Shown here piece by piece: positions 4,101 to 37,900 of a stretch of 54,514 bases of DNA. Each line of letters begins with the position of its first letter. Within the stretch, counting starts at the first letter, position 1. The notes below the pieces were generated by a model. That model was not told the DNA's origin. It made no database searches and saw only the letters and a list, made by a program, of their open reading frames with translations. This DNA comes from Girardia tigrina. Its lineage: Eukaryota. The stretch covers positions 33,854-88,367 of the forward strand of contig MQRK01227905.1 of assembly GCA_001938485.1 (NCBI GenBank), written 5' to 3'. Made by a program: the position numbers and the translations under genes.

Positions 4101-7100
4101 TATAAATAAAAAACTGAATTAAAGAGGTGAATTATTAATACGAAAAATTATATTTTTCCATAACTTTAAAGTTATTTTAGTAATAATAAAAACTATTCCT
4201 CCAAGTAATAGAATTTATAAGTACCAATCATCTCAAACATCCGAATTTTTAAGTACCACTCAAACAGCTTCAAATCTAAAAATTGTTGATACACTTCCGC
4301 AATTTTATCAAATGATTTAAATCGAAAACCTTTCAAAAAGGGTTGCATCGTTCGATCGGCATTAGAGCTCAGGATCGATAGCACGACCATTCGGAAAAAG
4401 TTCAAAGTATACACATACGTCTTCTAAGTACTTCAAAACATAAACCTTGAACTTCTTGTTAAATCGCTCTTGACGCGGCACTGATGGCGTTGCTCTACCT
4501 CGTGGAACTCAATATTTGGTTCAATTTTGATTGACAAGATAAACCAATTGCTCTTCAGGAATCACAATGTGTTTTCTGAATTGGTCGTTTATTGGAATGT
4601 TGATCAGTTGTTTGTGGCTTCCATTTCAGTACACTCTTGGGGATCTTGGAATAGTATGTAAACAAAATCAAGTGGTTGCAAATAATGACGAATCATTGAT
4701 TTCCCAACTTAAGATAGATGTACAAAATGTTGAATATTGATGATCGTTTAGTGTCCAAAGCCTTTTGGAAGTTGTTATCTTCTAACTTTAACTACGAGAC
4801 TTATTTTAAAAACTTATATCACTAAATTAAAATCGTTTTGAACTCATTGATATGTTCTTGGGACTAACAGTTAATTCGCTTTTGTATCAAAAATCTCTTA
4901 ATGAGCATCTCTTACTGAACGAGTCCGTGTCCAATAGTAGCGGATCAAAATGCAAAGTTCGAATTTATCAATTTTAATTAGAGTTGAAATGATGATTTAA
5001 TAAAAATGATGTTCAACGAATTCTAAGAAAATTACCATATGTATACGAAATCATGAAGAATGAAAACTGAATTAACAAAAATGGAATAGTTCTAGAAAGT
5101 CACAGAACCTTCACGACAACTGAATATTGCAAATTTGTAATCTTAATTTACCAAAAACGTTTAATCATTTCCCATCTGATTTTAGCATCAATTGAAAAAT
5201 TATTATGTTGGTAACGCCATTGAAAATAGGAAAACTGGTGATCTGGTCGCCACTTCAGTGGGAATACTTTTATTTCTACACTTTAAAGCTTTAACTAATA
5301 AATTATTTCTTTAAAAAATAGTGTTGTTGTTTAATGTTTTGGTAATAACCAAATACATTTTAAAGTAAAAAAATTAAGCATTATATTTTTCTTTATTCTT
5401 CTAAAATTTTTTGAGAGCGTTAAAGATTTTCAAAGCCATTATTTCACTGGGCGAATATCGAATCTATTATATTTTTCCATAAATTTCCTGATTATTTAGT
5501 AATAATAAAACTATTCCTCCAAGTAAAAGAATTTATAAGTACCAAGCATCTCAAACAACCGAATTTTTAAGTACCACTTTTAAGAACAATGATAAATTGT
5601 TCTGTGTTTCATAAGAATATCAGCAGTTAAATTCATGAATTATTGGAGTCTACCTATCGGAAAGATGCTTCTTTATTAACTGGGTAGTTTTTGGGGGTAA
5701 ATAAGCGATTCGCCTAAATGAAGTTTTACCTAAATGGTTAGGGGTTAGGTTAGGGTGATTCATTCGTAATTAAATGAATCACAAAATAAAAATATAGTTT
5801 AATAACATTTTTTATTAAAAAACAATATTTTTTATTCATTAGATGACAGCTCATACGATTCAAACGTTTTTTTCCTTGTTGATCTGCCGAACGGAAGTTA
5901 ATTTGTGATTTTCGAAAGGACAATTTATTAATTATACCCTTTTATTATAAAAATGTGCATTTCATTAGGTAAAATAACAATTAGGTAAAACTTCATTTAG
6001 GCGAAACGTCAATTAGGTGAACCGCCTATGAATCGTTTTTGGGTACTAAAATACTGAATGTGTCTTGCATCATTCCTTAATGACACCGAATACCGTCTAT
6101 AAAAATTTAATACATAGGACATAAAGTTTCTGAAAATGGAAGATTAAAGTAACAACATTCGTATAAAATATTCATGTAGGACTAAAGGCTTTGCAAAATT
6201 ATGTTTACTATGCGTACTTTGTTTCCTCTTTGGTGAAATTATAAGATGTTGCATTGCATGTGAAAACAATATTGACATATAAAAGCAGTGCAGAGACAGG
6301 TTCTGTTGCTATATTCTCCCAGATGATGAAACTGAATAATTCAAATGACATTTTGCTGAGTAGAAAATACATTGTCAGAAGATTTCATTTTGGATGAGAT
6401 GAATCTAATTACACTACAGCCATTTTCGAGACAAAGATTGAACAGAACGACTATATGCTTCTTCGACAACCTGCTTATAGTCTTTTCCCCTTTTAAATTT
6501 ATGAAGGAAACATTCAGAATAAGAAAGGTTTACTGTGCGTAGCCCAAAAATTTTAAAACAATGTACCCAAAACTTCTTCAAAATTGTGTAGAACAATAAG
6601 GTTTATACGTAGAAATATTTTGATGTATATTTTTGGTTTAAAACATATTTCAACGACTAAAAAAATAAAATTTGCAACTAATTATGGCTTCTTTTAGCGA
6701 CAAATAAAATATCATTTGGCAACAAAATAAATAATTATTCAAAAAATTAAAAAATTATGGCAACTTATTTTTAAAAACAAAAATACGCCATTTGTTAAAT
6801 ATACATTTATTTTTCATGACAATTAATTTCGACGGTATAACCGTCATCGTCAGGTCTCAAGAAAAAAATGAATTTTAAATCTGTTTATATAGGCAAGCAG
6901 TGATTATGTCATCAATGGATTATTATGTCATCTAAACACGCTCAATAGGGTTTTTGAGATCGAGCGAGCAATCGACCTGGTGGGAATGGGATCGTTGAAA
7001 GAAACCATAGGACGATCAAAAGAATTGCGGCGAGATCAAACATTACAATTACAGAAGCAGTATGGTGGTACAACAATACACCGTCGGAGAACAAAGAACC

Positions 7101-10100
7101 ACCGAGTTGGATGATATATAGTTATAAATGTATGAAACCCATAAGCCATAAAAGTGACAATGAGATAGAGGACAGTACAAAGGGTACAATGTATTGTGAC
7201 TATCAATTAGTCTGGGTGAAAGCAATGGGAAGCACAAGGTGCACACAACAATGGTTAAAGGGTCAAATATTAAAAAAATTATCAAACTGTAAATATTTAG
7301 TGGATTGTAATGGGTTGAGGTTCCCTCGGCATGTTACCGATTTACGGCCGAGAAGAGTCGAATGCGAGAACGTGAAGAACATAGCTTTGTTTTGGGACAC
7401 AGAGTCAGAAATCGATGAACCAGTGATTACCCACATAAAGCGTGTGAGATGAGTCCGAAGAAGGCCTAAATACTTGGATGACTACGTGGTAGATGGAGAC
7501 TCGGGTACGGACGAATCTGGTGGGGATGTGGGATGAGATGATAATCGAAATTAATAATCATGTTAATTCGATTCTTATATTTTGTTTGAATATTTCGTTA
7601 TTGTGAAAAACCCTTTTTTTGTATTTAATACAATTTAGGAATTTTTTATTCATTGTCATTCTCTACAACACAAATAAATAATTCTTAGCAACAAAATAGA
7701 TAAAATTCAGCAGCAAATTTGTTTTATTATAGCGAAAGGTTAAATAAAAATGCGACAAAAAAAGAATATTAAGAGACAATTGCAATATTATATAAGAAAA
7801 ATAGCTTTAAAAAAGACAAATTGGCTAGCAAACGTTTTTTTAATTACTTAAATACCAGGATTATTAACCGAATGATCTGCAGTATGAGAATCATCGTCAG
7901 TTGTTTAATTAAAACTTTTTTCTTTGATATAATAAAGCATTTGCCGTTTTAGTGGGTCCCCTATTTTTACATCGTAGCACCTGATTTTTGGCTTCATTTG
8001 TGATTGTAATTAATTTAAATCTTAATCGATTTTAGTTTTGTATCTAAATTGCGAATTACATGGACACAACACACTATTCTTGTCTCATATTGATCAACTG
8101 CCTTAACAAATCCATTTGTAATAGATTTGGCGGCATCAGTAAGTAAAACTGATGATTTATATATAATTCCACATACTTTAAATACAACACTTTTTATGTG
8201 TTAAAAATAAACCGGAAATTATCGGATTGTTCATTAAGACCGCCAAGCCAAATGGATGATAGGAACAATCCTTATCGATGGTTCCCACCATAAAAACCGG
8301 ATAACCTTGATAGATAATTTTGTAAAACTTATATCATAACCAGTAACAAATGACTGATTATCATCATTTTTACGGTAACAAATAAATGCACTGTTTCATG
8401 AAAACAAGCTTTAGCTGACAAAACAGTTCGCAAGTGGTTTTATAAGTTCAGAGCTGCTGATTTTAAACTAAGAAATAAGTAGTTTAATTAATAATTTATT
8501 ATTTTGCAAACAAATTTTTTGCCGTTATCTAAAAATTTATATGTATTATATATGATATATGAATTATATCTTTATATTTTCTCATAAAATAACGATTTTC
8601 GATAATAAAAAAACTAGTCGCTATTTTCTAGCTAATTGTTGTAGCAATGAAATATTAATCGTTGAATTTATTTTATTAGTCGTTAATCTATTTTATTAGT
8701 TGCTGATTTACTTTTTTGATGCTAATTAATTTTTTGTCGCAACTTTTTTTACTTTGTTGCCTCTTGTTATCAATAGCCTTTATTTTGGTGTTTAACAAAT
8801 AAAAGTTTCACTATTTTATTTTTGATCCTAGCATGTATATTTTCAATAAATAATGTTATAATTATAAGAGATATCAAAAAACAATATGTATAACATTATA
8901 ATAAATTCGGTAAAATTTTATTTAGGAAACTTGTGTAGTCAAAGTTTTGGAAATTCGATTTTCTATTTGGATAATGGTTAGGTTATATTTAAAATTTTAT
9001 TATTTTTAAATGATATTCTCAAATAACTTTTTATTAATTAGGCAAAATTATCAATTGCTCAAGTATTAAATATAAATCTCCATTTTTAATGATATTAAAT
9101 GGTATTTTTATTTTCCATTAAAAGGAGATTTTCAAACAGTTTTGATAGATCTATGTACAAACATGATTTAGGGTTAAGTCACAGCGTTACCCGACAAAGG
9201 CCCGAAAAAAATATATAATACTTTAGGAGTAATCATATGAGTTATTATAGTAATTTTTAAAATTTAATATATTTGAACAAAAAAGAGAAATTATAAAATG
9301 CAAATTTATTTATATTAAAAATTTTTTATTTTAACAATTTTAAATTTAATTTATGTGAACAAAAAGACAAAAAATGTCCTCTTCTGGGTAAATTATCAAC
9401 CAAGATATAAATAGTAGGGTCAAGTGGTACATGCAAGATTTATCTCGGGAAGGGGGCTAAAATAAAGGACTTTTATTAAAAAATTAAAAAAAATAATATT
9501 TATTATTTGTTATTAATTTAATTTTTTATTAAATAATTTATTATACCACATTAAAACTTAAAAAAAGATATCAGAATATTTTATTTTTCTAAAAATATTT
9601 TTAAATTTCGGAATGTAATTCCCCACAACCTATTTATCTTAAATATTTTTTTAGATTTTACTATCCAATATCCTTATAGCATCCTATTATAATTTTCAAA
9701 TTTCTTAGTGTTATAACATTTTTCTTTATATTTTTAGTGATTGCTGCTTTCTCTCTTGCCCCAATCTTCGGACACCCATAATAGGATTAATTTCCTATTA
9801 TTAACTAATTAATTTTTTTTTAAAAAAATAACATATTTTCAATACATTTATGAAATTTATATTTTGTACTAAATTAGCAATTATTTTATTTAAATAATAT
9901 ATTAAATTGATTATTCACGATTTTCGTAATTACATAATTTGGTTTTTCTTGCATATGTCATGGAGCGTAATTCGGTTTTAACTTGGCGCATTTGTCCGGG
10001 TACCAAGTCACTGGTTTCAATTCCATAATCCATTGAAAAAACAGGAAAACTTAAATAAAATACTATTTTCATTGAAAAATATTGATGTATTAAAAAAATA

Positions 10101-13100
10101 TCAAATATCAATGAGGCATAATTTATGTAGGGTATTTATTTATGGATTTATTTTTATTTTCTTAGAAAAAATACTGATAGATGAAAATAACTTGATTAAA
10201 TATAAAAATTATTTTTATAAAAATAACACATATCTGATGAGTTTGTATTTTAACACGAATTCGAGTTATTATGATTTTGGCTTAAGTTTCTTTACTTATT
10301 GTCGATTTTTTTATTCCGTTTTTTTGTGCAATACAATGTACAATAATTTTTTAAGTTTTACAATGAATTAATCTTATATTTGTTTACTGTCTGTAATAAA
10401 TAAGATAGGAGATATGTACTATCACATTCTACGCCCATATAGGCGAATGATCTTATTTGTAGTTTCGTGGTGGATACGATTGAATTTTAAAGATAAATGT
10501 TCTTTTAACATAACAAATTCCAACTTATCGGTTATTGTATACTATGTGTCTCACATAAAACCTCATTTTAAATGTGCAATAAGTCAGAGAGAAGATATTT
10601 ATTCTCTTCTTATCCTCTCTGATCATAGGTGGTCACCCAACGGATGTTCTAGGATCATTTTGTTCAGAAACTGACAACCTTTTTTTCTTATTAAGTCCTG
10701 TATGAATATCTAAAACCCAATGTGTAATATGTAATAGAAAGATTCATTGAACAAATATTTTTGCTTTGTGATAGCTATATATTTGATTTTTATTCCATAT
10801 TTAAGTATCTAATGTTTTTGATTATTTTGATGATTCTGACACATTCTCTTAGATTCCTCGAATTCCAGACATCTGTCAAATAAAGATGAAGAATCTCGTA
10901 AGTTTGTTTTTATTTTAATTGATGGAATGTTTATGCATATGAATTTAATGTTAAGATTAAGAGGAAAAGATTTTTATAATGCCAGTATTTATATTAGGCT
11001 AATAATGTTTCAGTTTGGTTGTTAAGTAAGGATTTGCTTTTCAATTACTACAGCTCATTCCATACCAATCCATTTGTTATATTTCTTCGTTCAGTGTTAT
11101 AATTTTACTTGTTTTAAAAGAAAGATTCCAAAACATATTCAGCATTGGCTTTCAAACAATAAGCTAATCCTCAGATTGTTGTATTTAGGTATTTCACAAA
11201 TGTTATCATTAATTACATTAACTATACATATAATAAAGAGTGTTAGTCCGGTTGCTACAATTTTCATTAGTTTCAATAATTTCCCTAAATTAATTTGTTC
11301 ATATCTTCTAGACTCACTAGTTACTCTATCCATTGTAATGAATGTTTCCTCATTGGACTTTTGACGATTGATTATGAAATTTAAATAACATTTGTATGGT
11401 TCCAATTATTGAGTCTCCACTTGCTCTGTAAAACTTTATTAATGTTTCTTCTTACGTACAGTTCAACGAAGAGTCAGCATGCAAAGTTTAGTTAGGCTCG
11501 TTGTTCAATGATGAAAAATAATCAATTTGAATTAGCATGATTGCAACTGTTGGTCGGTTGATAATTTTCAATGCAGCACTCGAAAAATGATATTGATTGA
11601 AAAATATTTTGCCGTTTTAAAAATTTCTTACATTTGTACCGTTTAATTGGTTGCTATATTTTTTTTATGATTTACACGAATTTCACCAATTTTTTTCTGG
11701 GAATCACTTTCTTGTCATACTACTGCCCAGTATAGTATAACTGCAGTGTATTCACAAAAAAATTCCGCATAATTATGCGAACTGTAACTATCATGACTGT
11801 AACAGTTCAATACATATTTTCAAAAAATATTTTCAAGCATTTGTATGGTTTCGAAACGAATTTAGCCATTTTTATGATGCTATAATATTGTTGAATTAAA
11901 TTAATTTAATTTTTATATTTAATAATTACTTACAATTGTAAGTAAATAATAAAAGCGTTACGCAACAGACAAACAGACAAACACATGACCACTGGGTTAT
12001 ATATATATATATGTATACACTTTGAGAAATATTTTATTATGGGTTTGTTATTTGTTGTTCTGGGACTTTGTCTCTCCTACCTAGATGGAAGATGTATGTT
12101 TTTTAAGTTTTTTATATTTGGATCACTCGGACAAAATATCTTAAATTTTGAATGTAAATTATTACATTGAAAATTATTTCAAAATAAGGATGAATTTTTA
12201 ATGTCTTAAATATTTAATTTTAAAAATAATAATGCAAATATTGTTCAAATAATCAGTTTTTAGAAAGACATTCTTAATTTATCAATTTTAAACGATTCAT
12301 GCTTACGAAAGTTTTGTTGATGATTGTTCTGGGGATAATTCAAGTTGTAATATTAAAAAAATGTCGGAAAACATAATAATATACCTAATATTGCAAAAAG
12401 TAATAGAGTAAAAAAAGTAAATAAAAATAATTGAATAAAAAGTAAATATCCACAATCCAAGGGGTACTGCAAAGGAAAGACAGACATGTCTAAGAAAATG
12501 TAACATTTCATAGTATTTAAGCAATTAGATATCGAATAAAATGTAAATTACTATTTATCTTTCTTTATCGATTGGAATGACTTAATCCTTTGAAGAGATA
12601 ACAAGTGAACTGAAATCTTAAAGAATCAGTACTACAGTTTCATTTCTTAATCAGTTTTTTACGTATGCCGACAAATATCTATTTTAGTAATCTAATAATC
12701 ACAAGTTGTTTTGAGCATATAAATGATTGACCGAAAATCGTCCTTGTCATCCTTATATTACTTGGCAGAATAAAAGCATAAGGATTAAAAAATTAAAGCC
12801 TTTCGCAAATTATCAGAAGGATCTGCTTTCAAAATTTACCAAGATGTCTAAAACTGCTATTTAACAATATTTTTCACATGGACAACAAAAAAATCATTGA
12901 AGATAATATTGTAAAAGAGAAACTAATTCAAATTATGTCGACCATTCTGAAAGTCAAATTTACAAAAAGTGCCAACATTTCGGAAAAGTATTTGAAAGAA
13001 AAGCGATTAGTGATGGACAAACTTAAGAAAATGATTCTGCTAACTGTAGTCATCCAGTTCGAGTGAATCTGAATGTTTTCTGGTCAAAAGTTGTTGGGAG

Positions 13101-16100
13101 GCTAAAAATATTAAATTTGCTTTATATCATTAGTTAAATAGATATTTTCCTTTCAAATATTACAATAGAGGTTTTTTAATAAAATTGGACGAACTTTCCA
13201 TTCAACCGAATAGATATTAAAGATCTTGAGACATCTATATGGTATAGTGAGGATCATACGTGCATTCAGTATCAGGTAACGTGTTACGTGATTCCAGGAA
13301 TTATTTTTATTTTATGTTAAAGTACAAGTTATTTTATTTAGTGAAAAACAGATTGAGTGAACATTCAAAACACTTAAATGACACTTAAGAATAATTGTAC
13401 TTATTTAAGAACTCCATTTATTAGATGTTGCAATTACATTAACTGAAATAATAAATTTCAAGTAAAGGAAAACACTTTTTCTCAATTTAAGTTTTTTGAT
13501 AATTTCGAATTCAAATCTTGGATGTTGGACTTTAAGTAGATTATTTCGTAACATGTTTCGGTTCTCTATATCAAGAAATTTGTATTGTTTTTTCAGGAAT
13601 ACGGAATTGTTTTCTATGTGTTTATGTGCAATTTGATCGATAGATACAGATAAATTAAATAAAACTATGTGATGCAAACTTATCTTATAATTTTTATAAT
13701 AACTGATCCATAAATGTCAATAAATATACTGTAACATCGATACTAAAAGTAATAAAAGATCTTCAAAGATATAATCATTTTAAGGATATTACTAAAATAG
13801 TTTAGTGATATTCATGGTGAACTATAATTTCTTTATAAGCTATTCACAGATGATGGAATGGATCATTTTGTATACTCACTCTCATTACAGAATGCATCAG
13901 TAAAACTTGAAATTATTATGTATTAAGTCTTATAATAAGCCTCCCCCGACTGAATGGATAACTGTGTATTGTATAGACTACAGTACCAGCATTCGAGTAC
14001 AGGGTAGTGAGTCATAGACTCTGTATCGGGTAAAAACCATAAATAGACAATACAGAGCCTACTGACTTTATCGCATGGGTTTAGATGCAATAATGCGAAC
14101 CATTAGTGCACAGGCACGCTTCGGTTTCCCAGTAAGAAAGGACCAGTCGTGATCCCTCGTACGGTGTAGAGCTTTGGCTATGTAAACAAGTTTCGTACAA
14201 TAAGTAAAGGGACACTGAAATATCCCCACATCATTTGTATTACTTAACCGAAAGTCGAGAATCACCCTTGGAATCACTCCTGAGTCCGTCTCCGCGGTAC
14301 CGTCGTGGGGCACTGACTCATCATGCATCATGATCAGATTCGAAGATTTTGTATATCCTTCATCTACGTTATTTTGTGAAGCACTAGTACCACTGGTATT
14401 GCCCTGGGTTCGGTGATCGATCAATAAATGTCGCTTTAACCATCCATTCGTTTTATATGTCTTGTAACAATTTTCCATGGGACACTGGAAGGTTATGTCA
14501 CCATTCTGTTACTGCGGTGTGGTAACCGTATGCACGTTTTTGATATGTCTCCTTTTGATGTGTCAGACAAATGAAGGAATTTGTGTTCAATAACAAAAGT
14601 GTATTAAAACCTGTCCAATTGTTGTATTCAAAAAGGAATAAAAATAACTCTATTATTACAAAGTAAAAATTTGAGTTAAATTTAACAAGAAAAAACGATT
14701 TATTGATGAATCAAACGAACGAAGAAGAGAAAAAACAATGTTACTTTCGTTCTGCGAGTAAATTTCCCAATTTCAAAGCTCATGTCATAAATGAAGCGTT
14801 ACGATAAAACCGAGGAAAACCTTCAAATGTGTTCAGAAACTCCATCATCTGCTAAGAAAAATTTTTATGATAGCACATCTTTGGGTAAACTATTTTCTTT
14901 TGACTCGTTGGACAATGATTCTCACGAGTCCAATCCTAACAGTCCTTCTTCACTTAAAACTCCATACAGAAATTCGAGTGAAGTTCTTTCTGGTTCTCAG
15001 TTAACGTAAAGGCACGGTTTCCACAACAATAGTTTTAGGGAGGATAGTAAAAAAACCTTGAATCGTTTAGCTTCACTATATACATCATCATTAATTATTA
15101 ATAAATGAGCAAGACTTCCAATTATGTGGTTATTAAACCTACGATTGGCAGACATCTGCTACTTTTGTCAGATGTTAAGATTTATTCGGTTTTCAATATA
15201 TTTCCATAGACATTACTCCGATATTTTTATTTTCTTAAGTTCCAACTTTTTTTCGGTTAATAGTTAATGTAAAAAATATTTAATTTATTTAAGAGAATCA
15301 TATATGCCTACCAAATCATTGAAAGGTTTTGAAGTTCTTTAAAGTCAATAATAATTTGGTCCATCACATAATGGTAATCTTAAATTGAAGTGTTAAAACC
15401 GAAAAAAAATCATGTACAATATTAAAAATTTAATTAATTAATTAATAATCTTATTTTCTTTTAATATAAATTTGTTATTATTTATATTTTTATTGAAGAT
15501 ATCAGAACTGGAAATAACAATTTTATTAGTTAGTTTTGTCACACCTCCTATTATTTGATTTACACTTTCCTTTAATTACATTCCTAAATTAAATCAAAAA
15601 TTATAATGTTATTGATTATTTATTTATATTTGTATAATTATCATAAATTTTAACAAATAAAAAATGGTGTTTTAATTATTGAAAGAATAATGTTTGATTA
15701 GTAAATATTATCTTTTCTAAAGTGAATAGTGGAATATATTGGTAAAAAGGTTTTTTTTTCATTTAATTAAATTTTGCTTTGTTAATTTATTTTTACTTTG
15801 TCATTTTAAGTGTTAATTAAAATGATTCCTTTAAGAATTAGTTTTATCAACTAAAAGTTAAGGAATTTATGCTTTTTTATTGACTCATACTTTTGTAAGG
15901 AATGGTTTTTTGGTTTATGCACTATTTGAGACTGGTTCCTCTCTTACCCGGGTGGCTGATTAAAATTTTACTTTTTATTATTTAAAAATAATTTTCTTCA
16001 AAAATTCCCTAAAAATTGTCGAGTGCAATAGGAACTTCAATTAAGGATCCAGAGATCTTATATTTGTTACTCTTTTAATAACTCTTAAATTGAATGTACA

Positions 16101-18327
16101 GAATTTTAAATTTTAGGAAGTCTCATTTTACTTACCATGTTTTAATGCTCAGCAATATTAGTACCACCTTCACAACAACTGTCTTCAATATGTCTTCCTG
16201 AAGTATTCTTCAGACATGACGTTACATCTTTTGCATTTATATTACTAAAACATCCGAATGTAAGAATGTGGATAAATTTTTTTTTCAATATTATTGTTTT
16301 TTTTATATGTGGCATTATTTATTGTTTGAAAGTATTTAACCTTCAGGAGACTAAGTTTTTTTTAAGACTAAAGGGGTATTTTTTATTTCCCACTGAATTT
16401 TGATTTTTAATAAGAAATTCGAAATATTTTGTTGTTTATTATAAATATATTATACTAAACTAAGAAACGTTTGAGGTAAAGAATTTTTTGCCTAAAATAG
16501 TATAAAGTATATTATAAATAGAGTAAAGATTATATAAAACTATATTATAAAAATTATATAATCCCCCAGTACAGCTATTTTTTCTGATCAATTTTTTCCT
16601 CGAGAATAATCCCCTACTTCTAATAATTCACCACACTGAAAATGGGTTAATATTGCTTGGAATACTCTTTCAAAAGAAATGATTATAAAAACGTTATAAT
16701 CATGTTTCTTAGGTATCAAATTTAGAACAAAATATTGTGCTTGTATAAATCATCAAGTTCTTGATGGTGAGGACTTGTCGGAATCTAGCTATTCAGAAAT
16801 TGATGAATAAATTTGATTTTCTAAAATTCTTTTTTATATTTTTAAAAAATTCTAATAATTCCCCATATCCTTGTTTTTCTAACTTTTAAAAAAAAATAGA
16901 ATAATCTCTCATGGGAATTATTGGAAGTTTTAGAGTATAATGATATTACATAGTATAATATAAACGACGGTACCAAAATGGACTGGGACCAAAAAGGCCT
17001 GCTCCTTGAACAATTATTTTATTGCATTGGAAGACACCTTTAATTTATTTCATGTCCATGTTACCAATAAAATACTATTGTGAATTAATTTGCAAATACT
17101 TGAAAAAATAAAATAATATATGTGCTTGTGTTTTAAGTTTTAATGTATTAAGTACATAATTTTTTTGAAATATGTTATTATGTAAATTAATAATGGATTA
17201 ATTTATTTTTCATTCTTTTTTATATATTCTACTTTTCTCTTGGAAAATATATTTAATGACATTATTTTCTTTAACATTTTATTTATAGAAGAATTATATT
17301 TGATAAAAGTATAATAACAGAAATCCGATCCCCGAAACTTATTCGAACCGACGTCAAAAGCAATGATGGCGACAATGATGATATTTTGTCCGAAAGTATT
17401 TCTCAAAAAAACAACACAAATTTGTGGTTAGTTTTGATGAAATTAAAATAGAATGTATCCCTACGAAATTAATTCACAATTATTTACTGAAATAATACAT
17501 TTGTTATAATTATGATAAAAATTAAAATTAGTATTTGTATTTTATCTATTTACAACTAAACTAAGAAGATATGAATTCGAATGTTTACGAGTCATAAGGT
17601 GAAACAAAAGAATATTGAAATTATTAATATTATATTACTTTCGATGATATTTTAATTTCAAATTATTTTTTTTATTTTACTTTTTAAATTTTTTTTTAAA
17701 TTTACTTTTATTTAATATTTTACAAATAACGTATAAAAATGAATACACTCAAAAATAATTAAATTTTATTAAATATCTAACACAATGAATAAAATCAAAA
17801 ATAACTAGTAAATCAAAAAATTAAATTTTTTATATCCATTCTTTATGCATTCAGAACTCTACTTTCTAACAAAGTTTTAATTAAAAAATGATTTAAAAAA
17901 CACAAATATTAAAAAAATAATTTAATATTTATCTTAATAATATATATAATTTAACAAATGTATATAAAATAACAATTAAAACTAAATTTTATTCGTATAA
18001 ATAAAATTACAAAAAAAATAATTTTTTTATTATCATATTCTTTATATGTAATACAATTTTATATAATACAATTATTTAAATGAAAAATAAATAGTAAATT
18101 GATTAAAAAATTAATATAAACTGCTTATAATTTGTAAGTATATATTTTTGATTTAATATTGTTCTGGAACTACGAAATTTCCGTTTTTTCCCATTTTGGG
18201 ACCTTAAAAAGTTTTTTGATCAAATTTTTACATAATCATTTATTGTCATCGAGAATGTGTAAGTGTGCCAAGTTTGAAGAAAATTGATTTAGTAAAAGAC
18301 CTTCGAAAATAGGTTTCTAAATTCTAA

Positions 18328-18365
<38 letters not shown>

Positions 18366-21300
18366 AAAAACACGCCATTTGTTAAATTTATTTTTACGAC
18401 AATTAATTTCGACGGTATAACCGTCATCGTCAGGTCTCGAGAAAGAAATGAATTTTAAATCTGCTTATATGGGCAAGCAGTGATTATGTCATCAATTGAT
18501 TATTATGTCATCTAAACACGTTTAATAGGCTTTTCGAGAGACCCGTTTGCACATTAATCTTAGGATCTAAAGATCTGATATAAAGTGCTTCACAGGCCAC
18601 CCTCTCCCTATAGTTTTTAAAACGAGAACACAGAATTTTAAAATCATTTATGTTTATGTTTTCATTCAAATTACAACCCATGCAATATTACTCCCACCTA
18701 CATTCCGACCATGTTCTTGAATTCTCTTACTAAGATGACGGGACGTCTCTCCAATGTATGTGGCATTACACCCATTACATGTAAATTTATATAAGAGATC
18801 CGAACATAATCCAAATGAGGTTGGAGATTTATTACAAAACACATTTTGGATTTTATGTTTGTGATATTATTTTTAAATTAAAGGCATTATTTACGCATTT
18901 TAAAATTGAACGTTTAAATTGACCAAATCCCTTTGAATATGGAATGCTTAAAACATATTTTAAAGTTGTTGATATAAATTGTCGAAATTAATACAATCAA
19001 ATAAGTACTAATTTGGGATTTACGAATAAAGACGTTAGGACAAACGGAACATTAAGACGCATTTAAACTGTTTTGTCTTACAAGCACAACGTTTTATTAC
19101 ATTTAGTTGTATGGATAAATAGTAGAGGAATTTGACTGAGTATAAAATATATATATAAAGATATATATAGTCAATTTTGGCTTTTTACCGGTGAATTTCC
19201 ACTTTTTGCCAATCGATTTTGTCTCTAGAAAATTATATTTTAATTTAGTTAACTTTTGGATAGAAAATAAATATATTTTTAAATTTTCCTCTACTTTTTT
19301 AGAATTTAAAAAAAACAGCTCTTATGTCAAATCAAGAAGAGAAAAGAACTTCATCATCAAGGAATGTTTTGCAGGCCCCGAGGCTGAGAAGAAGAAATGT
19401 CTTCATATCAAATGAAAAAAGATTGAGTCTAATACGTCTTGTCAAGGACCAAGGACAGACTATCAAATCTGCAGCATTTGAGAATATGATGAAAGAAACG
19501 CTAGTCTATATCTTGTCTCATTAATCTTGTCACGAACTTCCCGTGTATTGTGGATTGCTAAGTTATCCCAAACGATGTTACTTTCAGCTATTTCTTGAAA
19601 TAATCTATTAAGAACTGATATCAAAAGAATCAATTTCATTGTTAAATTAGAAATTACTTGAAAATATATAATACCGTGCGAATTCATGTCATAAATTAGT
19701 GAAAATGTGTTCCTAGTACTGTTGGAACAATAGAGTTGACTGGATAATGTTGACTTGTGTTTGTGAAGCATTTTGTGGGAAATTAATTACGTGAAGACGT
19801 CAAAAAGTCCGTAGACTTACAGGTTAATTAATAATGTATAAACGTGAATCTATTATGCGAAAGAAGTACATTTAAATAGATAAAAAATTATAGTATTCGT
19901 TTTAACGTTTGATTATTTTGTCTGACATTTTCCACGATTATTCATTATATTTGATTTTGAAAAGTGCAATATAATTAAGTTTTTGCTTCCAAGGAAAATC
20001 TAACCTAAATAAATAATTCGACTACTAAATGAGATATATAGTGAAGAGGTCCCCTCTCGATCTACATCTTAAAAAATGGATTAAAGAATTTAACTGCGAC
20101 AGAATGAATATGCATAATGTGGAAAGGAGCGGGAGATCACGAGAAATATGTGGAGAAAATTGGAAAAACTGAAGAATATCGTTCGGAATGAACGGAAAGC
20201 GATGATGGAATAACTTGCATAGGCCTGAAACGCCAGCTATGGAATAGTGCATGACATGTTCCATTCACTGGGAGTAGGAAAGTTATGCTTGTGATTCGTG
20301 CCTTATTTTCTCATTGTGGATGTTAGATGTGGTGTGCACATCACTCGGATGATAATGAAACTCAGTCATTGACGATAAATTTCGATTTCACACAAATTAC
20401 AATTTTTATTTCTCTTTTTTTCACTGTGCAAATTACCGTATTGCAAATTACACGTACTTGTCAGTATTTAAATAATATCATATACTGAATAAATAATCTC
20501 ATATACTATAAATAATCTCATATACTTTAAATAATCTCATATACTATAAATAATCTCAAACATATTATTTTAAATACATTATTTTTGTAAATTTTTATCT
20601 TTCTTAAACCAGAAAAGAAAATTTATTATTAATATTGAATTTTAATTTCATTTTATAAATTTGCTTTCTATAAAACTTGTTCTAACTTAATTTTTAACTT
20701 TGATTAATAATTTAGAATGACCTTTAATTTCCCAATATACGAAAATTCAAATAATCTATATATACAAAAATTTTCAAACTGGCTCTTGAGTTCCTAACAT
20801 TCCTCTCTTTCTTTAAAATTTTTGAACTTTTCAACATTTCTCACTAGTTGTTTTTTATCTATATCCTCCAGTCTGTAACTCATCTCATGAATTCTCTCTA
20901 TGATGGTATATAACACCTCATATCGGTTGTTTCCTTTATTTCTTATCACTTTTTACCCACACTTTATCTTCGACTCTGAAATGCCTTCTTGTTTGTATCT
21001 CGATATACTTCCTGTTTTCATCTTACATACATGTATACCACTACTATATCACTTATATCTATATATTTTCCTAACTAATATAACTTCTACCTATCGTCTT
21101 CTGTCGAGTTGCATTTAATGTGAATTCCATCTGTGGTAGCATGTCTTCCAAACTTATTTCGTGTCTTTATTTTAGACTAACTTGAATATTTTCGCGTATT
21201 GTCCGGAACTGTCTTTCCACCATATCATTATTATGGTGGTAGGGGCACGAGAATTTCAACTGAATACCTTATTTTACATTAACTCTTGTATCTTCTGGGA

Positions 21301-30300: not shown

Positions 30301-31784
30301 ACGTTTCTGTAACTATCAGCCACTCTTGCTGGGGATAACATTCTACTTTTGCTTTTTTAGAAGCGAATTACAAAGATAAGTGGTCTTATTGGCAGTATAA
30401 ATTACTTAGTATTTCTTTTTCGTCACATCAGCGTCTTCAAACACTTATAATGCTCAAAATGGAGTGTGTCTTAATAATATAAGTAACCTTAATAATATAA
30501 TGTATCTTTTGGGCTAGAAAACGTAGAGTGTGCTTTTTAATAATATCCGTTCCATATATTATATTGGGTTGTCACAAAATTTTTCTTCGAATTTTGGCGC
30601 GCCAATATTAATACATATTGGAGGGGAAATATTCAAGTGGAGGGAATATTTTGGTAACGTCATTTGTAATGTACACTTGTGTCTATATTTTAGTGTAATA
30701 TATATTTAATTTTCCTGCTTAGTTTATGGCCTCTTGTATAGTAAAAAGGAAGAATAAAATAAGCATTTTTGGAATATTATGTTGTATTATTTTCGAAAAA
30801 GGAAAAAGGCAGCCCAAGCAGCTAAAAAATATGCAATGTCTGCAATCACCGATCGCATCGTGCAAACGTGGTATGCCAGGTTCAGAAGCCCAGAATTCAG
30901 CCTTAAATATTGCGGGATCTCTGGATGGCCTGCAACAACTGACATGACGAAAATATTGCTATGGTGGACTAGATAGCAAACGTCGGTAATGTGTCGTACA
31001 TTTCAAAGACACCTCCACGCTTAAGATTATTTCAATCGTACTTATGTGTGGGTTCCGCATGATTTGAATGAGCGCCAGTTGAATCAACATAGGCTTGTTT
31101 CAGATCAGCTCTTTCAAAGTACCAGGAAGAACATTTCTTCAGAATATGATTTCTGGCGACGAAAAATGTAGATTATACAACACTGTTGTGCACCGTAGAT
31201 CTTGGTCTAAAAATATAGTGCTTCTCAGACATCTTAAAAGATTATTCTTCACCCGAAGAAAGTGATTTTGTGTATTTGGGGGACGTAGACAGCGTAGTCT
31301 ACTATGAGCTGCCACCGAATAATCAAACTATCAATTCGGTAAAATACTGTGAACAACTTGACAGCGCTTGCACAAAAACGGTCTTGTTTAATAGAATAAG
31401 AATATGTTTTAATATGACAATGTGTGACTACATACAACTGTGACAACCGTACAGAAATTGGTAGGGTTGGGTTGGGATTTTGTACCTCACTATCCATAAA
31501 GCCCGGATATCGCAACATCCGACTACCATTTATTCCGCTAACTACAAAACTATTTTCATGGAAAAAATTTCGTATCTTTGGACGATATAAATATTTTCTT
31601 AGGGGTAAAGACGAAGTCTTCTGCAATTGTCTGAGCGTTGGGCTAGATTGATACAAAATAAGGGATAATATAGTTAATAATGACAGTTTTTGTATTATAA
31701 TGTATTTTACATTGAATAAATATTTAAAAACCGAACGAACCTTCGTGACAACCCAATAACATTTTCAGAAAAAAAGGTTTATCT

Positions 31785-31826
<42 letters not shown>

Positions 31827-31876
31827 NNNNNNNNNNNNNNNNNNNNNNNNNNNNNNNNNNNNNNNNNNNNNNNNNN

Positions 31877-31931
<55 letters not shown>

Positions 31932-34900
31932 CTTTGAATTATTTATCATATCAATAAAAATAAAAAACACCATTTTCAGAAACTTTTGAGATTAAATATT
32001 TTTTGTGACAGTTTACTAACCGTAATCTTTACATATCTGATCCTAAGATTACCTTTGTCAATATATAAGATCAACTGATTCATCAGTTGCTATGAACAAC
32101 TTGACCTGTTAACTATTAAATTTCGGATTTCGTCTTCCATGTTCGATACTTCAAAGAATCTATTGCAGTCAGTAATGAAGTCATTAATATATGGTTGACC
32201 GTTTTTATGTTTCCGGGACAATGTGGTTTATGATATTCGCGTTGGTCGTCATGTTAGAAGATAAGAGGAATTGTAAATTATATTTCAACAACTGAAAACA
32301 TACGAATATGCGCACATATGTAGATACAAATGACGACAACAGAGAATTTGTAATGCAAAGTATGCATTGTATCGATTTATATTTTTGTATAAATCGAAAT
32401 CGTCACCCTTAGATCTAGACCAACGTTCAAAGAATAAAATCAGTGAAAACGTAATAAAAATTCTTAACAATAATAAACTTTTAAAGATAAAATTAGTTAC
32501 ATTTTAAAAGGGGTTTATGAAAAACTAAACTATTATAAATTATTTACTTTATTATTTACTTGGATTACCATATAATCATTTTCTTATTTATTTATTTATT
32601 TTTAATTTTTTTTCCTAGGAAGAAAAAAGACATTGTTATTTTTTAAACTGGTGAATCCGAAGCATGGCTGTACCTTTCTGTTGCATGGAAAATCTCTTAG
32701 TGAATTAGTGCGCGTCAAATACGTCACTAAATTTATCATCGTTGCATTTAAAAACGCTTATTTAGAATTAGCATTTATGAAAAACTTTCAAATACGTTCG
32801 TTGCCCTCAAATCAACACAGTCGGACAGAAGAATCAACTTTAGTTGGAAAGGATTTGGTTTGATATTATTATTATTTAGTATTATTGACGTTTTTATGTC
32901 TTATTTCTTTTATTCTTAAACACATGAAATATAATTTGTCTTTTAATTAATTCTAATTAATCTTGTTTGCTTGGCTTTAGGTTTCTGGGGATTCGTCCAA
33001 CCACTATCCCGAATGTCTTTGGTTATATTGCATTATTTGCTTTTTTACACAGGTCATGATTCGATTCACAAACGAGTCATTCTGGTGGCACAAAAGCAAA
33101 TAACAAATATGATAGACATGAAAATTTCTGCCGGTCGCTAAAATCATGTAACGGTCACATTTCCAGGTTTTTCACTTTTCCAATGCGTTTGAAACCATCC
33201 TCAACAGTAGTGTTACTGATGTCTAGTTCTTTTGCAATCCCATTCGTTTGGACTGTTTAGATTTTGCTATGGTCTTCAATTGTCATCATAGAATGCTTTC
33301 GGTCGACGATTTATTTTCAAGACTGAAAATTCTGGAACGAAATTTCTTGAACTATTGCTTTATTCCGCTTTTTGTAATACAATTACAGCCACCTACTTGG
33401 TTAATTCATCGAGCCATCTCAGCTGCAGCTTGTTACAATTTGATGTTAAAATAAAAGAAATCTTTAAATTACTTCTACATCTTTTAATAAGTTTAAAGCG
33501 CATGACACTCTTGTCGTAGAAATTATTTATGTAGAAATTAATTATAATTTAAGAGATTACATATTATAAACTTTTAGATGTTATCAATTAAGTGAATATT
33601 AAGATAGCAATAGTTCTATCGAGGAAGATATATTGTATCATTTTAGGGGATTCCAATGTACACCATATAAAATAATATGGAATCTCCTATTTCAACCAAC
33701 ACCATTTCCTATTTATTTATTTTAGATAATCGGTGATAATATTTATTATATTTTGTGATATTATCTATATATTTATGATTTACCATATTTCTATAGCATC
33801 TATGAAAAAATTACATTTTGGGTCAAATGAATCTTTTTTTTTATGTTAAGGTTAAAAGATGATCTCGAAGACTCAGTATACACATTTCGATTCCATCAGT
33901 ATACTGGACAGTCATGTACTGCAGCTGATTTGGATAATTTGAGCACATTGTAGCACATGGTATTATATACATGATGAATGGTTCGTTACGTGAACAATTT
34001 CTACAACAGTCTGAATTTGGCCAGATTATTATACCAACAGAAAACTCATGTTGTTGGCACATTAAGAATGAACCGGAAAAATGATCTAAAGGACTGTACA
34101 AAACTCAAACTGAAATCTGGTGATATTCAGTACAGAAGATGCGATCCACGCAAAATATTTGTCTAGCGTGACAAGTGTGGTGCCAATCTTATAACAGCAT
34201 CGCACGATTCGTCGAAGACAAATTAGGACACTGGGCAACCCATTATTAAATCTGTTGCAATTCTCGACTACAATCGACACATGGGTGCAATTGACAAATC
34301 TGATCAAATGGTTCATTCAATTTGTCTGTTTCCATGCATTGGTCAAAGACTATTCTAGCCCTGAACGAAAGCCAAAACAAGACGAAAACGCGTTGTTTGC
34401 AAATCTCACCGAGAAGGAATATGCAAGCGATGGGTAAAAGATGAATTTCACAAACGAATTGAAATACCCAGTACACCTGTGGGGGTTTTGAAGCAGAACC
34501 AATTTTGTGCATATCACCTTATAGTGACCAAACAATTAAATTATATTTATATTTATATTTCACAAGACTCAATAGTATTTATAAATATATGTATACATCA
34601 AACTCCCATATTTTTATTTATAAAAAAAAATTCCTAACAGTCCTCAAAAAAAATAAATATTTGTGAAAATCACATTTTTATAATAAATTACAATCTAAAA
34701 TCTCAATACGATTGGTAAAAAATCATTAATTGTCAACAACAACAAATGGCCTCCAATAACATGTACCGAGTTGGAGATCTCGTGTACTTTGAGACATCCG
34801 CCGAAGCATTGTATCAAATCAGGAAGATCGAGGAGTTGAATAAGACGACAATCGGAGTAGTTGAAGCGAAGGTCGGCGGAGAGATTTGACTAATTCTCTC

Positions 34901-37900
34901 TTGCAAATCGCTGATAAAGTTAATTACGACAATCAGGAGAATTTAGTGTCGGTGCTGATGAAGAACAGTTGGATTTGCTTAAACACCGGGAACTATTCAC
35001 CCGGCTGCTGGAGAACCGCAAGATGCTGCTTGGTACCGATCTCACGGAATTATCGCCTCGAGTTGCCACTGCCGATAAGACTTCCGAGAAAACTGATACA
35101 CCTTGTTTCGAACTTTACCATACGTGTAAAGATTATTATGGGGTTTTGTGCTAAAATTATAAAGTTTGCAAAAGTTTTCGTTTTATTTCCAAGTTAAAAG
35201 ATTTTCTAACGAAATCACTTTAAAAAGTATTTGGAGTTTGATGTGCAATAACCCCTTTGGTATGTGATGGTTTAAAGATTAAAGCAAAAACAATTTATTT
35301 AATTCAGTTAAATTGCAATTCAAAATACATCTAAAAATTTAATTCCATAATTTATTAAAAAATATCAAGTCATCCAAAACCGAAACCAATTTAACCTTTA
35401 ACTTTTATTTAAACAACATTCTCGAATCATTGTGCTTATATCTTTATAATTTAAATAATCTTTTGTTTATCCTTAAAAAATTCTAAAAAAATTACAGGAA
35501 ACATATTTATTTCACTCTTCATTTTTAAATTATATTTGTTGGGAGCGTTCATAAAATATAAATTTTTTGAAGCTTATCAAATTATTAAATAAACAATTAC
35601 ATTCCGTAAAATATTGTTATAAATATGTTAAAATAAGATTTTCAGAAATTTAATGTAAAAAATTAATTTATGTAAGAAATAGAATAAATTTTACGGTAGG
35701 GTTATTAAAAGATTTATGTTAAGATTTATTATAAAGTAAAAAAAGTTAATTTCAAATTTGATAAAAATATTTATTTGAAATAAAATAAAAAGTAATTTAA
35801 GTTTGATATTTATTTGCGAAATAAAAGTAAACTAAACTATTTTGGTAACTTTTAAATCAAAGTAAATTTAAAATGTGGTTATAATTTTTTTTGGAAAATG
35901 TAATTACAATTTTTTTGGAAATTAAAATTGGAATTAAAAATAATTATAAAACCATTAAATCGACTTAAATAAAAAATGCGATTTTATTTTTTTACGGAAA
36001 ATGTAATTTAGAAATAGGAAAATTTAAATGTACCATAAAATTGAAAAATTAATAAAAGACGTAACAAAATCTTTGTGACAAAATTTTAATTCACTATAAT
36101 TTTTTATTAAAGAAAAATAGAATTTTAATTTGTAAAAAAATATATATTAACCATATTTTTATTTAAAATCAAAACTTGAAAGCCAATTAAAAACGTTTAT
36201 TAATTTCGACGGTTTAACCGTCATCGTCAGAACAAATGATTTTTCGAACGAAATTTACTTATATAGTGCAGTTAATGATTATGCAATCAATACGTAATCA
36301 GTACATCATTTAAAAACTCTCAACAAAGTTGTAGAGAGTGCAGTTTGAACGTTAATTTTAGGATCNNNNNNNNNNNNNNNNNNNNNNNNNNNNNNNNNNN
36401 NNNNNNNNNNNNNNNNNNNNNNNNNNNNNNNNNNNNNNNNNNNNNNNNNNNNNNNNNNNNNNNNNNNNNNNNNNNNNNNNNNNNNNNNNNNNNNNNNNNN
36501 NNNNNNNNNNNNNNNNNNNNNNNNNNNNNNNNNNNNNNNNNNNNNNNNNNNNNNNNNNNNNNNNNNNNNNNNNNNNNNNNNNNNNNNNNNNNNNNNNNNN
36601 NNNNCATTATCTAACGCTTTCAAAATAGAATTTTTAAATATTTTAAACCCCTCTGAATATGGCACAGTTAACACATAACCAATTCCCAAACTTTTATCAT
36701 TAGTGTTGCAGGATTGCTCTTGAACTTGAACATCTAAAATTTTAGCATTACTTTTTTTGTCAATTAATTTATCAATAGTTTCCTTTGTTAATTTCTCTAC
36801 TATCGATTTTGAATATCCGTTATCATATAATAATTTGTTTAATNNATTAAGACTGTCATTACATCCTTTATATGTAGATGAAAGAGCCCATGAGCGAAAA
36901 ATAAGACCTTTAATCATATTTCGACGATATTTGGGTTCACAGAAACTGATCGGTGTTGTATACAACACCGTGTCAGTTTTCTTTCTGTAAATCTCAGTCA
37001 CATAATGTCCATTTTTTCTTTCAATTAATAAATCAAGAAAGGACAATTTCTTATCTTGTTCTTTCTCCATAGTAAACTATACATTTGAATGCAAAGAATT
37101 CATATAATTTAAAAATGGGTAAATATCTGTTTCATTTTGAAAAATCAAAAATATATCATCAACATAGCGTTTATACGCTAGAGGTTTCCGACCGACAAAA
37201 GAATCGATTTTATCTTCAATACTCGAAAGAAATATTGAAGCCAAAGTGGGGGCTAATGGTGAACCCATAGCTACTCTATCAACTTGTTTGTACCAGTCAT
37301 TATTGAACAAAAAATGCACATCTGACGTGGCAAAACATAACAATTCACGAAATGCAACTTTATCAAGTACACTGTGATTAGTAGTATTACTTCTCCAAAC
37401 ATTGCAGCACAAATCAATAGTCTCTTTCAATGGAACGTTTGTAAATAAACTTACAACATCAAAAGATGCCATATTTTTATTTATATCTATTTGTATTTAT
37501 ATTGGTTGTGCAAAAAAGAAAGTACAAAAGTTCCTCAAAAAAATTTGTTTAAAAAATTCAAATTGTTATAGAAATAAATTTTTGTGTTCATGATAATGTC
37601 TTTTGAGCAAGAACCCAATAATATTATAATTAATTAATTAATAATTATCCTAATTTAATTTAATAATATTAATATGTAATTAATATTTAATATATAATTA
37701 AGACTTAATATTTAATTCTGCTTTAATCTTAAATATTTCATATTTCGTAAAGCTATTTGAAGTTATTTAAGTCTCAATTAGCGAAATGAAAGTTAATTAA
37801 CTCCTCACAATGTTAAAAGAATTTAATATTTTGGAACATTTAGGTTTTTTAACTAACATTTCCAAATGAGAACAACCTTCATCTAACACGATATTGCGAG

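Follow-up and report, generated by a model that had tools for sequence, protein, structure and literature searches.

The 54,514 nt of Girardia tigrina DNA analysed here (NCBI GenBank assembly GCA_001938485.1, contig MQRK01227905.1, positions 33,854–88,367 of the forward strand; hereafter the window) raises the question of why three small hammerhead ribozymes should be found on its minus strand, and what they would do in the elements that carry them. Hammerheads of Penelope-like elements (PLEs) have already been described from 40 animal species and their occurrence as such is ordinary; their role is given as unclear in PMC8557442. The three motifs were identified at the sites given in the original prediction, with nucleotide C3 of the core at 6853, 18433 and 36230, and they are minimal type I hammerheads in the pseudo-long terminal repeats (pseudo-LTRs) at the 3' ends of dead, 5'-truncated PLEs of two families, an assignment of which we are practically certain. 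In an active tandem element the messenger RNA (mRNA) would probably begin with this motif, which would also contain the likely start codon, and a cut there would switch off translation rather than serve as a step in copying. We hold this explanation as a whole to be somewhat more likely than not.

When the window was scanned loosely on both strands for CUGANGA...GAAA nine matches appeared, just three of which share stem II and the palindrome. Hammerhead 1 (6818–6856, minus strand) consists of stem I GAC/GUC, the core CUGACGA-U, a stem II of 6 bp, GAAA and the palindrome AUUAAU, with a predicted cut between 6821 and 6820. Hammerhead 2 (18398–18436, minus strand; predicted cut between 18401 and 18400) is built in the same way, also with GAC/GUC, and hammerhead 3 (36194–36234, minus strand; predicted cut between 36198 and 36197) has the stem I UGUU/AACG, the loop UAA and the triplet AUA. 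The cleavage triplet does vary between AUU and AUA, nucleotide H17 being U at 6821, U at 18401 and A at 36198, and stem III is in all three cases the palindrome AUUAAU, which can close fully only between two molecules.

Some details of the prediction needed adjustment. The loop of stem II differs by one base, as proposed, but stem II folds as 6 bp with a loop of 3 nt (UAU or UAA, instead of uuaua and uuaaa), and a stem I of about 3 bp is correct for family A but not for family B, where GUU/AAC is extended by a U-G pair to 4 bp. A location closely behind the stop of a PLE open reading frame (ORF), proposed for two copies at about 70 nt, holds for all three, the distances being 74, 74 and 75 nt in copies 1, 2 and 3. 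With an identity of 89% over 194 nt, copies 1 and 2 form one family (A), while copy 3 represents another (B), the proteins of the two being 65% identical over 534 aligned residues, so that the two families are real but the window holds two independent examples and not three.

That the motif is not a product of chance follows from the genome (G000, 1.43 Gb), where the exact core CTGACGATGACGG-N3-8-CCGTCGAAA gave 4,039 matches and the reversed pattern none. A more general pattern (U after A9, U16.1 and H17) gave 37,599 matches against 17 for its control, and 12,719 motifs with C15.2 (palindromes ACAUGU, ACGCGU and ACUAGU) belong to families G, H and J (for instance L130–L158 and L200–L207). An Rfam scan of the window motifs gave no hammerhead family match at E values up to 5; the motif missed in this way is of about 40 nt with a reduced helix III.

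Since the window holds only two independent examples, conservation was analysed over a 33-nt core using one natural copy from each of seven families; genomic copies, which decay neutrally once dead, offer a weak test, and the comparison between families is the informative one. The catalytic positions CUGANGA...GAAA...UH are all invariant (11/11) in all seven families, compared with none of 21 positions in the flank on either side (mean identity 0.32 and 0.42, ungapped), and the core is therefore conserved beyond its flanks. Stem II, which had been described as equally invariant, is so only in families A and B and changes on both sides elsewhere. Position N7 varies between C, A and U and H17 between U, A and C, as catalysis allows, with one G17 among 107 sampled motifs (those with at least 4 bp in stem II among 132 distinct matches, weighted toward families A and B), and helix II is closed by G10.1-C11.1 with one extra nucleotide past A9.

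The compensatory change proposed for stem I proved to be part of a real covariation, in which stems I and II and the palindrome all take part. Altogether 96% of 77 cells are paired, against 26–58% in slid controls, five of the 11 named pairs change on both sides, and the covariation score was reached by none of 500 shuffles, a control that ignores relatedness. In stem I, which flanks the cut and is open at its ends, pairs 1 and 2 are kept in all seven families with changes on both sides and pair 3 in four of them, and among the sampled motifs each of the first two stem I positions is paired in 99 of 107 and a perfect 6-nt palindrome is present in 96 of 107. The palindromes seen are AUUAAU, AUAUAU, ACAUGU, ACGCGU and ACUAGU. 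Their two central bases switch together between UA and AU (in four and three families), which makes sense for pairing between molecules, since only two molecules can form this pair.

The motif had been regarded as a lineage-specific variant, and this is not supported because an extra nucleotide after A9, a stem I of 2–3 bp and 6-nt palindromes, together with low activity as dimers, had been published earlier (Cervera and De la Pena 2014, PMC4209133). Among the 56 metazoan motifs in Fig. S3 of that paper the consensus stem I is of 3 bp, with 2 bp in Drosophila virilis, Culex and Oikopleura, and D. elegans has GUC/GAC, the palindrome AUAUAU and U17. The rows closest to the motifs described here, among these minimal hammerheads with a small palindromic helix III, are those of D. 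elegans, D. rhopaloa, D. virilis and Adineta vaga 1. Shared features are type I topology, CUGANGA with an extra nucleotide, G10.1-C11.1, a helix II of 5–6 bp, a helix I of 2–4 bp and the 6-nt palindrome, as well as the position behind an ORF stop, thousands of single truncated copies and inverted 5' copies. In contrast, AUUAAU and the stem II GACGG/CCGUC are absent from the 56 rows as given in the PDF text, and the 37,599 pattern matches exceed the 9,000 given for Xenopus. Dimer cleavage was also addressed by Lunse et al. (RNA Biol), as cited in the review PMC6765202, and their work may already contain this motif family.

Family members encode a reverse transcriptase (RT) domain (RVT_1) followed by a GIY-YIG-like C-terminal domain with CCHH; in families A and B a CxxC separates the GIY-like from the YIG-like motif, and two His follow further on. 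This is the single ORF, with RT and with GIY-YIG containing CCHH, by which endonuclease-containing (EN+) PLEs are defined (PMC8557442), the match to GIY-YIG (PF01541, E 1.7e-4) being of 22.2 bits and thus slightly below the cut-off of 22.6. Other EN+ PLE traits were found as well, namely tandem junctions, inverted 5' copies and two clusters of tail ends near +30–50 and +70–90, and in one copy (L120) hammerheads are located at both ends of the ORF region, 2,764 nt apart. By inspection, families A, B, C and F have FDKGNG and a linker between RT and endonuclease (EN) without CxxC. An extra Zn-finger in this linker is given for Neptune and Nematis, and DKT without CCHH for Hydra (PMC8557442), and by the motif criteria of the same paper DKG and the finger-free linker point to the Penelope/Poseidon clade. 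A non-LTR retrozyme, defined in the preprint 10.64898/2026.07.22.740005 as short non-coding tandem repeats with a hammerhead each, was considered and rejected, as each copy stands alone and adjoins the end of an ORF.

The copies in the window are likely inert relics, since each is single, no ORF follows any of them and they lie 11.6 and 17.8 kb apart. They might instead be thought of as regulatory ribozymes of the host, serving in place, since all three are intact and on one strand, which near 52,590 also carries a 14-3-3-like motif. This is hardly credible, as they are three out of tens of thousands of motifs, young (90–98% identical to other copies), single and far apart, no second 14-3-3 motif was found in the window, and a Pfam scan of 103 short frames gave transposases only.

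What the original prediction had missed is that the core holds an in-frame AUG of the ORF and that a TATA box is found at a fixed distance upstream. The AUG is spelled by A9, the extra U and G10.1 (minus strand 6845–6847, 18427–18425 and 36224–36222 in hammerheads 1, 2 and 3), that of hammerhead 1 being the likely start of the PLE ORF if a full element followed. At junction copies it is in frame with the ORF in six families, A (L082, L088, L090, L094), B (L124), C (L113, L120), D (L118), E (L119, L122) and F (L121, L127, L128), with spacers that differ in length between families but are all multiples of three; in the damaged copies L092 and L099 it is out of frame. In-frame stops occur 4–20 codons upstream, the sole direct in-frame AUG before it being the adjacent one in family E, and among the junction copies examined of families A, B and E no further Met follows before residue 98. 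The conserved motif F-L-x-x-C is situated 60–66 residues from the core AUG, the median for 41 of 45 homologues with at least 790 residues being 57.

The extra position is U in 20,696 motifs of the genome versus 757 with A, C or G (both patterns fix U17 and thus omit family B), and by a hand count it is U in just 12 of the 56 published rows (PMC4209133). Judged from these sequences, the core AUG would very probably be the start codon of the ORF in an active element, with the predicted cut falling after codon 9. A hammerhead-like N-terminal peptide signature was also looked for, in 50 long homologues from other organisms, and was seen in none of them.

A TATA box was identified 33–38 nt upstream of C3 in all eight of families A–F, I and J (shuffle p 0.02–0.07 each). 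As a predicted promoter element it is found in copy 1 at 6885–6891 (minus strand, TATATAA, 38 nt upstream of C3) and in copy 3 at 36259–36265 (minus strand, 35 nt upstream of C3), and it is damaged in copy 2. Six of the eight TATA-bearing families contain the motif ATGACATAAT, which we take to be bZIP-site-like, at -55 to -59; in copy 1 it is conserved about 20 nt upstream of the TATA box (6903–6912, minus strand), with a second at 6922–6931. Six of the eight also contain, 3–16 nt before C3, a sequence TCAKT/TTAGT that presumably resembles an initiator (TCATT, 7 nt upstream of C3, in copy 3). Transcription is predicted to start in this interval, 3–16 nt upstream of C3 and on the 5' strand of stem I, and an RNA starting there would explain why stem I is so short.

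Both the overlap with AUG and a promoter in the pseudo-LTR have precedents (PMC11167929, PMC3846280). In PAc, a Poseidon element of Anolis carolinensis (Frangieh et al. 2024, PMC11167929), the ORF starts at stem II and the cut falls 26 nt downstream; cleavage was seen only with the protein and is dispensable for insertion in vitro. PAc was tested biochemically, whereas the elements described here are known from sequence, and the paper reports the overlap for Anolis alone and, in the sections considered, proposes no translational switch, while here six families show the overlap. A comparable case is Pen2a_Av, from the rotifer Adineta vaga (Arkhipova et al. 2013, PMC3846280), whose pseudo-LTR likewise comprises the first 12 codons of the ORF, a putative TATA box and, 20 bp beyond the latter, a sequence resembling an initiator; the passages on it do not link promoter and ribozyme.

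In D. virilis, by comparison, the internal promoter of Penelope lacks a TATA box, and the element contains a 5' intron (PMC2377424). An AG is present 1–4 nt before C3 in families A, C, D, E, F and I, not in B, but unlike in D. virilis no intron ending in stem I was seen, as no GT-AG joint appeared in the contigs of seven runs, which cannot show absence. These runs consist of contigs without ends or strand, most of them only presumed to be RNA.

The ends of the copies bear on an account given by Cervera and De la Pena, according to which two hammerheads in a tandem transcript excise an RNA of unit length; this RNA, possibly in circular form, would then be the template of new insertions. It agrees with the dimer design, with the hammerheads that flank whole elements (L120) and with a low but real in vitro dimer cleavage of a Schistosoma motif (PMC4209133). 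In a circle the AUG would again be connected with the ORF, and copies extending across the cut would result in this case too. Linear products, however, would give ends at the cut, and among the 162 copies that could be classified (those with enough downstream sequence) only three end within 2 nt of it, the others running into the tail or carrying indels. None of 27 family A 5' junctions begins exactly at the cut; a few do so within 9 nt in AT-rich sequence, and six (L070, L081, L083, L085, L107, L196) begin at +30 to +33, which is where short tails end.

With three ends of 162 near the cut, the copied RNA was therefore probably for the most part uncut, or recircularised, or antisense, an antisense RNA having been proposed in PMC3846280. 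Inverted 5' copies gave no clear enrichment of ends at the cut, and L077 and L017, considered as cut-site ends, were rejected since both continue into the tail. PAc with catalytic mutations, moreover, inserts normally in vitro (PMC11167929), and excision of a template by the hammerheads appears unlikely.

Several observations weigh against a cleavage that switches off the mRNA of an active element. According to energy calculations only stem II is stable, the pairing probability of stem I being 0.01–0.16, and efficient cleavage would for this reason need help. The dimer hammerhead reaches -14.8 to -18.4 kcal/mol compared with -23.8 to -35.7 kcal/mol for the best two-strand fold, leaving the double hammerhead 9–18 kcal/mol above that fold, and the monomer hammerhead is not the fold of lowest energy either. 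The families share ancestry, and counts across them are thus not independent.

As to the promoter, the usual spacing between TATA box and start is about 30 nt, and TCATT in family A lies only 22 nt from the TATA box, which is shorter than usual. No TATA match was found in families G and H, and the 5' ends of copies do not concentrate at the predicted start, the 66 boundaries that could be used being scattered between -19 and -227. One contig of 988 nt (X9), from a leaf-litter RNA run that may contain DNA, spans the ORF end, pseudo-LTR, hammerhead and ORF start without gaps; it continues upstream of the TATA box and hence reflects read-through RNA (or DNA) and not the predicted start, and it does not show a single transcript.

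In family G (palindrome ACAUGU) the frame opened by A9-U-G closes within about 13–16 codons in most copies, so that the extra U is kept there without being part of a start. A conserved frame that continues through the tail begins in this family at the AUG within the palindrome, upstream of the cut, and the start codon has likely been shifted within the ribozyme while still preceding the cut; no 5' junction of family G was present among 14 matches. Finally, RNA-seq of PAc contained no reads ending at the cut (PMC11167929).

Taken together with the uncut contig X9 and the copies that cross the cut, this lack of cut-site reads and the weak predicted folding could also mean that the fold persists at the start of the RNA chiefly because it binds protein or dimerises RNA, cleavage in the cell being negligible, and the overlap with coding and promoter sequence could account for part of the conservation. 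Such a purely structural role would leave it unexplained that CUGA and G8, non-coding and upstream of the AUG, are nevertheless invariant in seven out of seven families, that N7 and H17 vary just as catalysis permits and that the stem I pairs beside the cut covary, and we consider it improbable. Pairing of the core GACGAU with AUUGUC into an inhibitory fold was evaluated too, as was a palindrome upstream, UCUYGAGA; both were set aside, being confined to family A and not conserved.

For a translational off-switch, which we regard as the best mechanism for the active element while giving it slightly less than an even chance, the following course may be envisaged. In an active tandem element the hammerhead would stand at the very start of the mRNA and contain the likely start codon. 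Cleavage might take place in a dimer, with stem III AUUAAU paired between two RNAs and stem I formed in trans, and could be assisted by the protein of the element itself, by analogy with PAc of the anole. With the cut behind codon 9, a capped fragment of about 36–50 nt would be released and the remaining RNA would lack a start codon, and new insertions would likely be copied from uncut RNA, starting in the tail 30–90 nt past the cut.

A more far-reaching and distinctly tentative suggestion, which on balance we doubt, is that promoter, ribozyme and gene start make up one device of 70 nt, in which the TATA box would start the RNA on the 5' strand of stem I, the core would spell the start and stems II and III would encode the first nine residues, so that a cleavage dependent on dimer or protein decapitates the mRNA. 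Were this true it would constitute a negative feedback sensing the level of the element's own RNA and protein, shared by families with the same palindrome, and it would answer the question of what PLE hammerheads are for. No paper describing promoter, ribozyme and start codon as a translational switch was found in the literature searched, most subscription papers lying outside it; the opposite geometry is reported for hammerheads of viruses, in which the cut precedes a start codon and promotes translation (PMC13725137). The value of the present elements is as a test system, since the core contains an AUG in frame with the ORF in six families and a TATA box is kept at a constant distance in eight, and the prediction is that RNA starts at stem I and that cutting silences translation.

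Regarding the three copies themselves, copy 1 is a family A PLE stub of about 230 nt (6729–6959, minus strand; blastn 90% to the family A copy L070 over 247 nt) containing the last ORF codons, the stop at 6930–6928, the pseudo-LTR, the hammerhead and a long tail, which extends about 92 nt beyond the cut site and whose end is uncertain by a few AT-rich bases. Copy 1 belongs to a family A subtype, together with L006, L012 and L088, having a second in-frame AUG 3 nt past the cut (6817–6815, minus strand), which the other subtypes lack. It directly abuts the end of an LTR retrotransposon (6960–7530, plus strand) and no target-site duplication spans it; the retrotransposon end was identified by inspection from an integrase-like C-terminal frame (6958–7452), a purine-rich tract (about 7522–7530) and a likely LTR start, and has no Pfam match.

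Copy 2 is a family A 3' fragment (18353–18972, minus strand; 93.5% to L070 over 633 nt) consisting of about 620 nt with a decayed GIY-YIG endonuclease region carrying several stops, the stop at 18510–18508, the pseudo-LTR, the hammerhead and a short tail finishing in (TA)n. Beside its 5' break a 12-nt inverted hammerhead remnant (GTCGAAATTAAT; 18981–18992, plus strand) may be the leftover of an inverted 5' copy, but is too short for certainty. Copy 3, of about 1.3 kb, is a family B PLE truncated at the 5' end inside the reverse transcriptase (36151–37483, minus strand; RVT_1 E 6.9e-9; 97% to L060), with an in-frame stop at 37079–37077 and a masked gap across the endonuclease, and on both sides it is bordered by a direct repeat, of about 15 bp (37469–37483 and 36151–36165), that is likely the target-site duplication.

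A fourth and far older PLE endonuclease fragment, without a hammerhead after it, is located at 15997–16186 (minus strand, 68–70% to family B). Elsewhere in the genome, families G and H end in (TA)n, and in L111, L114 and L116 the beginning of a family C ORF continues in frame into a GC-rich coding segment that differs from the AT-rich DNA of the host, which may be a capture or an assembly chimera. The 14-3-3-like motif of the window lies at the end of an open frame (52550–52600, minus strand; Pfam E 0.0025). The window further contains a C2H2 finger frame at 14068–14508 and DNA-transposon fragments of the types Tc1/mariner, piggyBac-like DDE_Tnp_1_7, DDE_1 and DUF4817 at 19466–19786, 30758–31440, 33978–34163, 43529–43717, 45125–45667 and 48094–48546.

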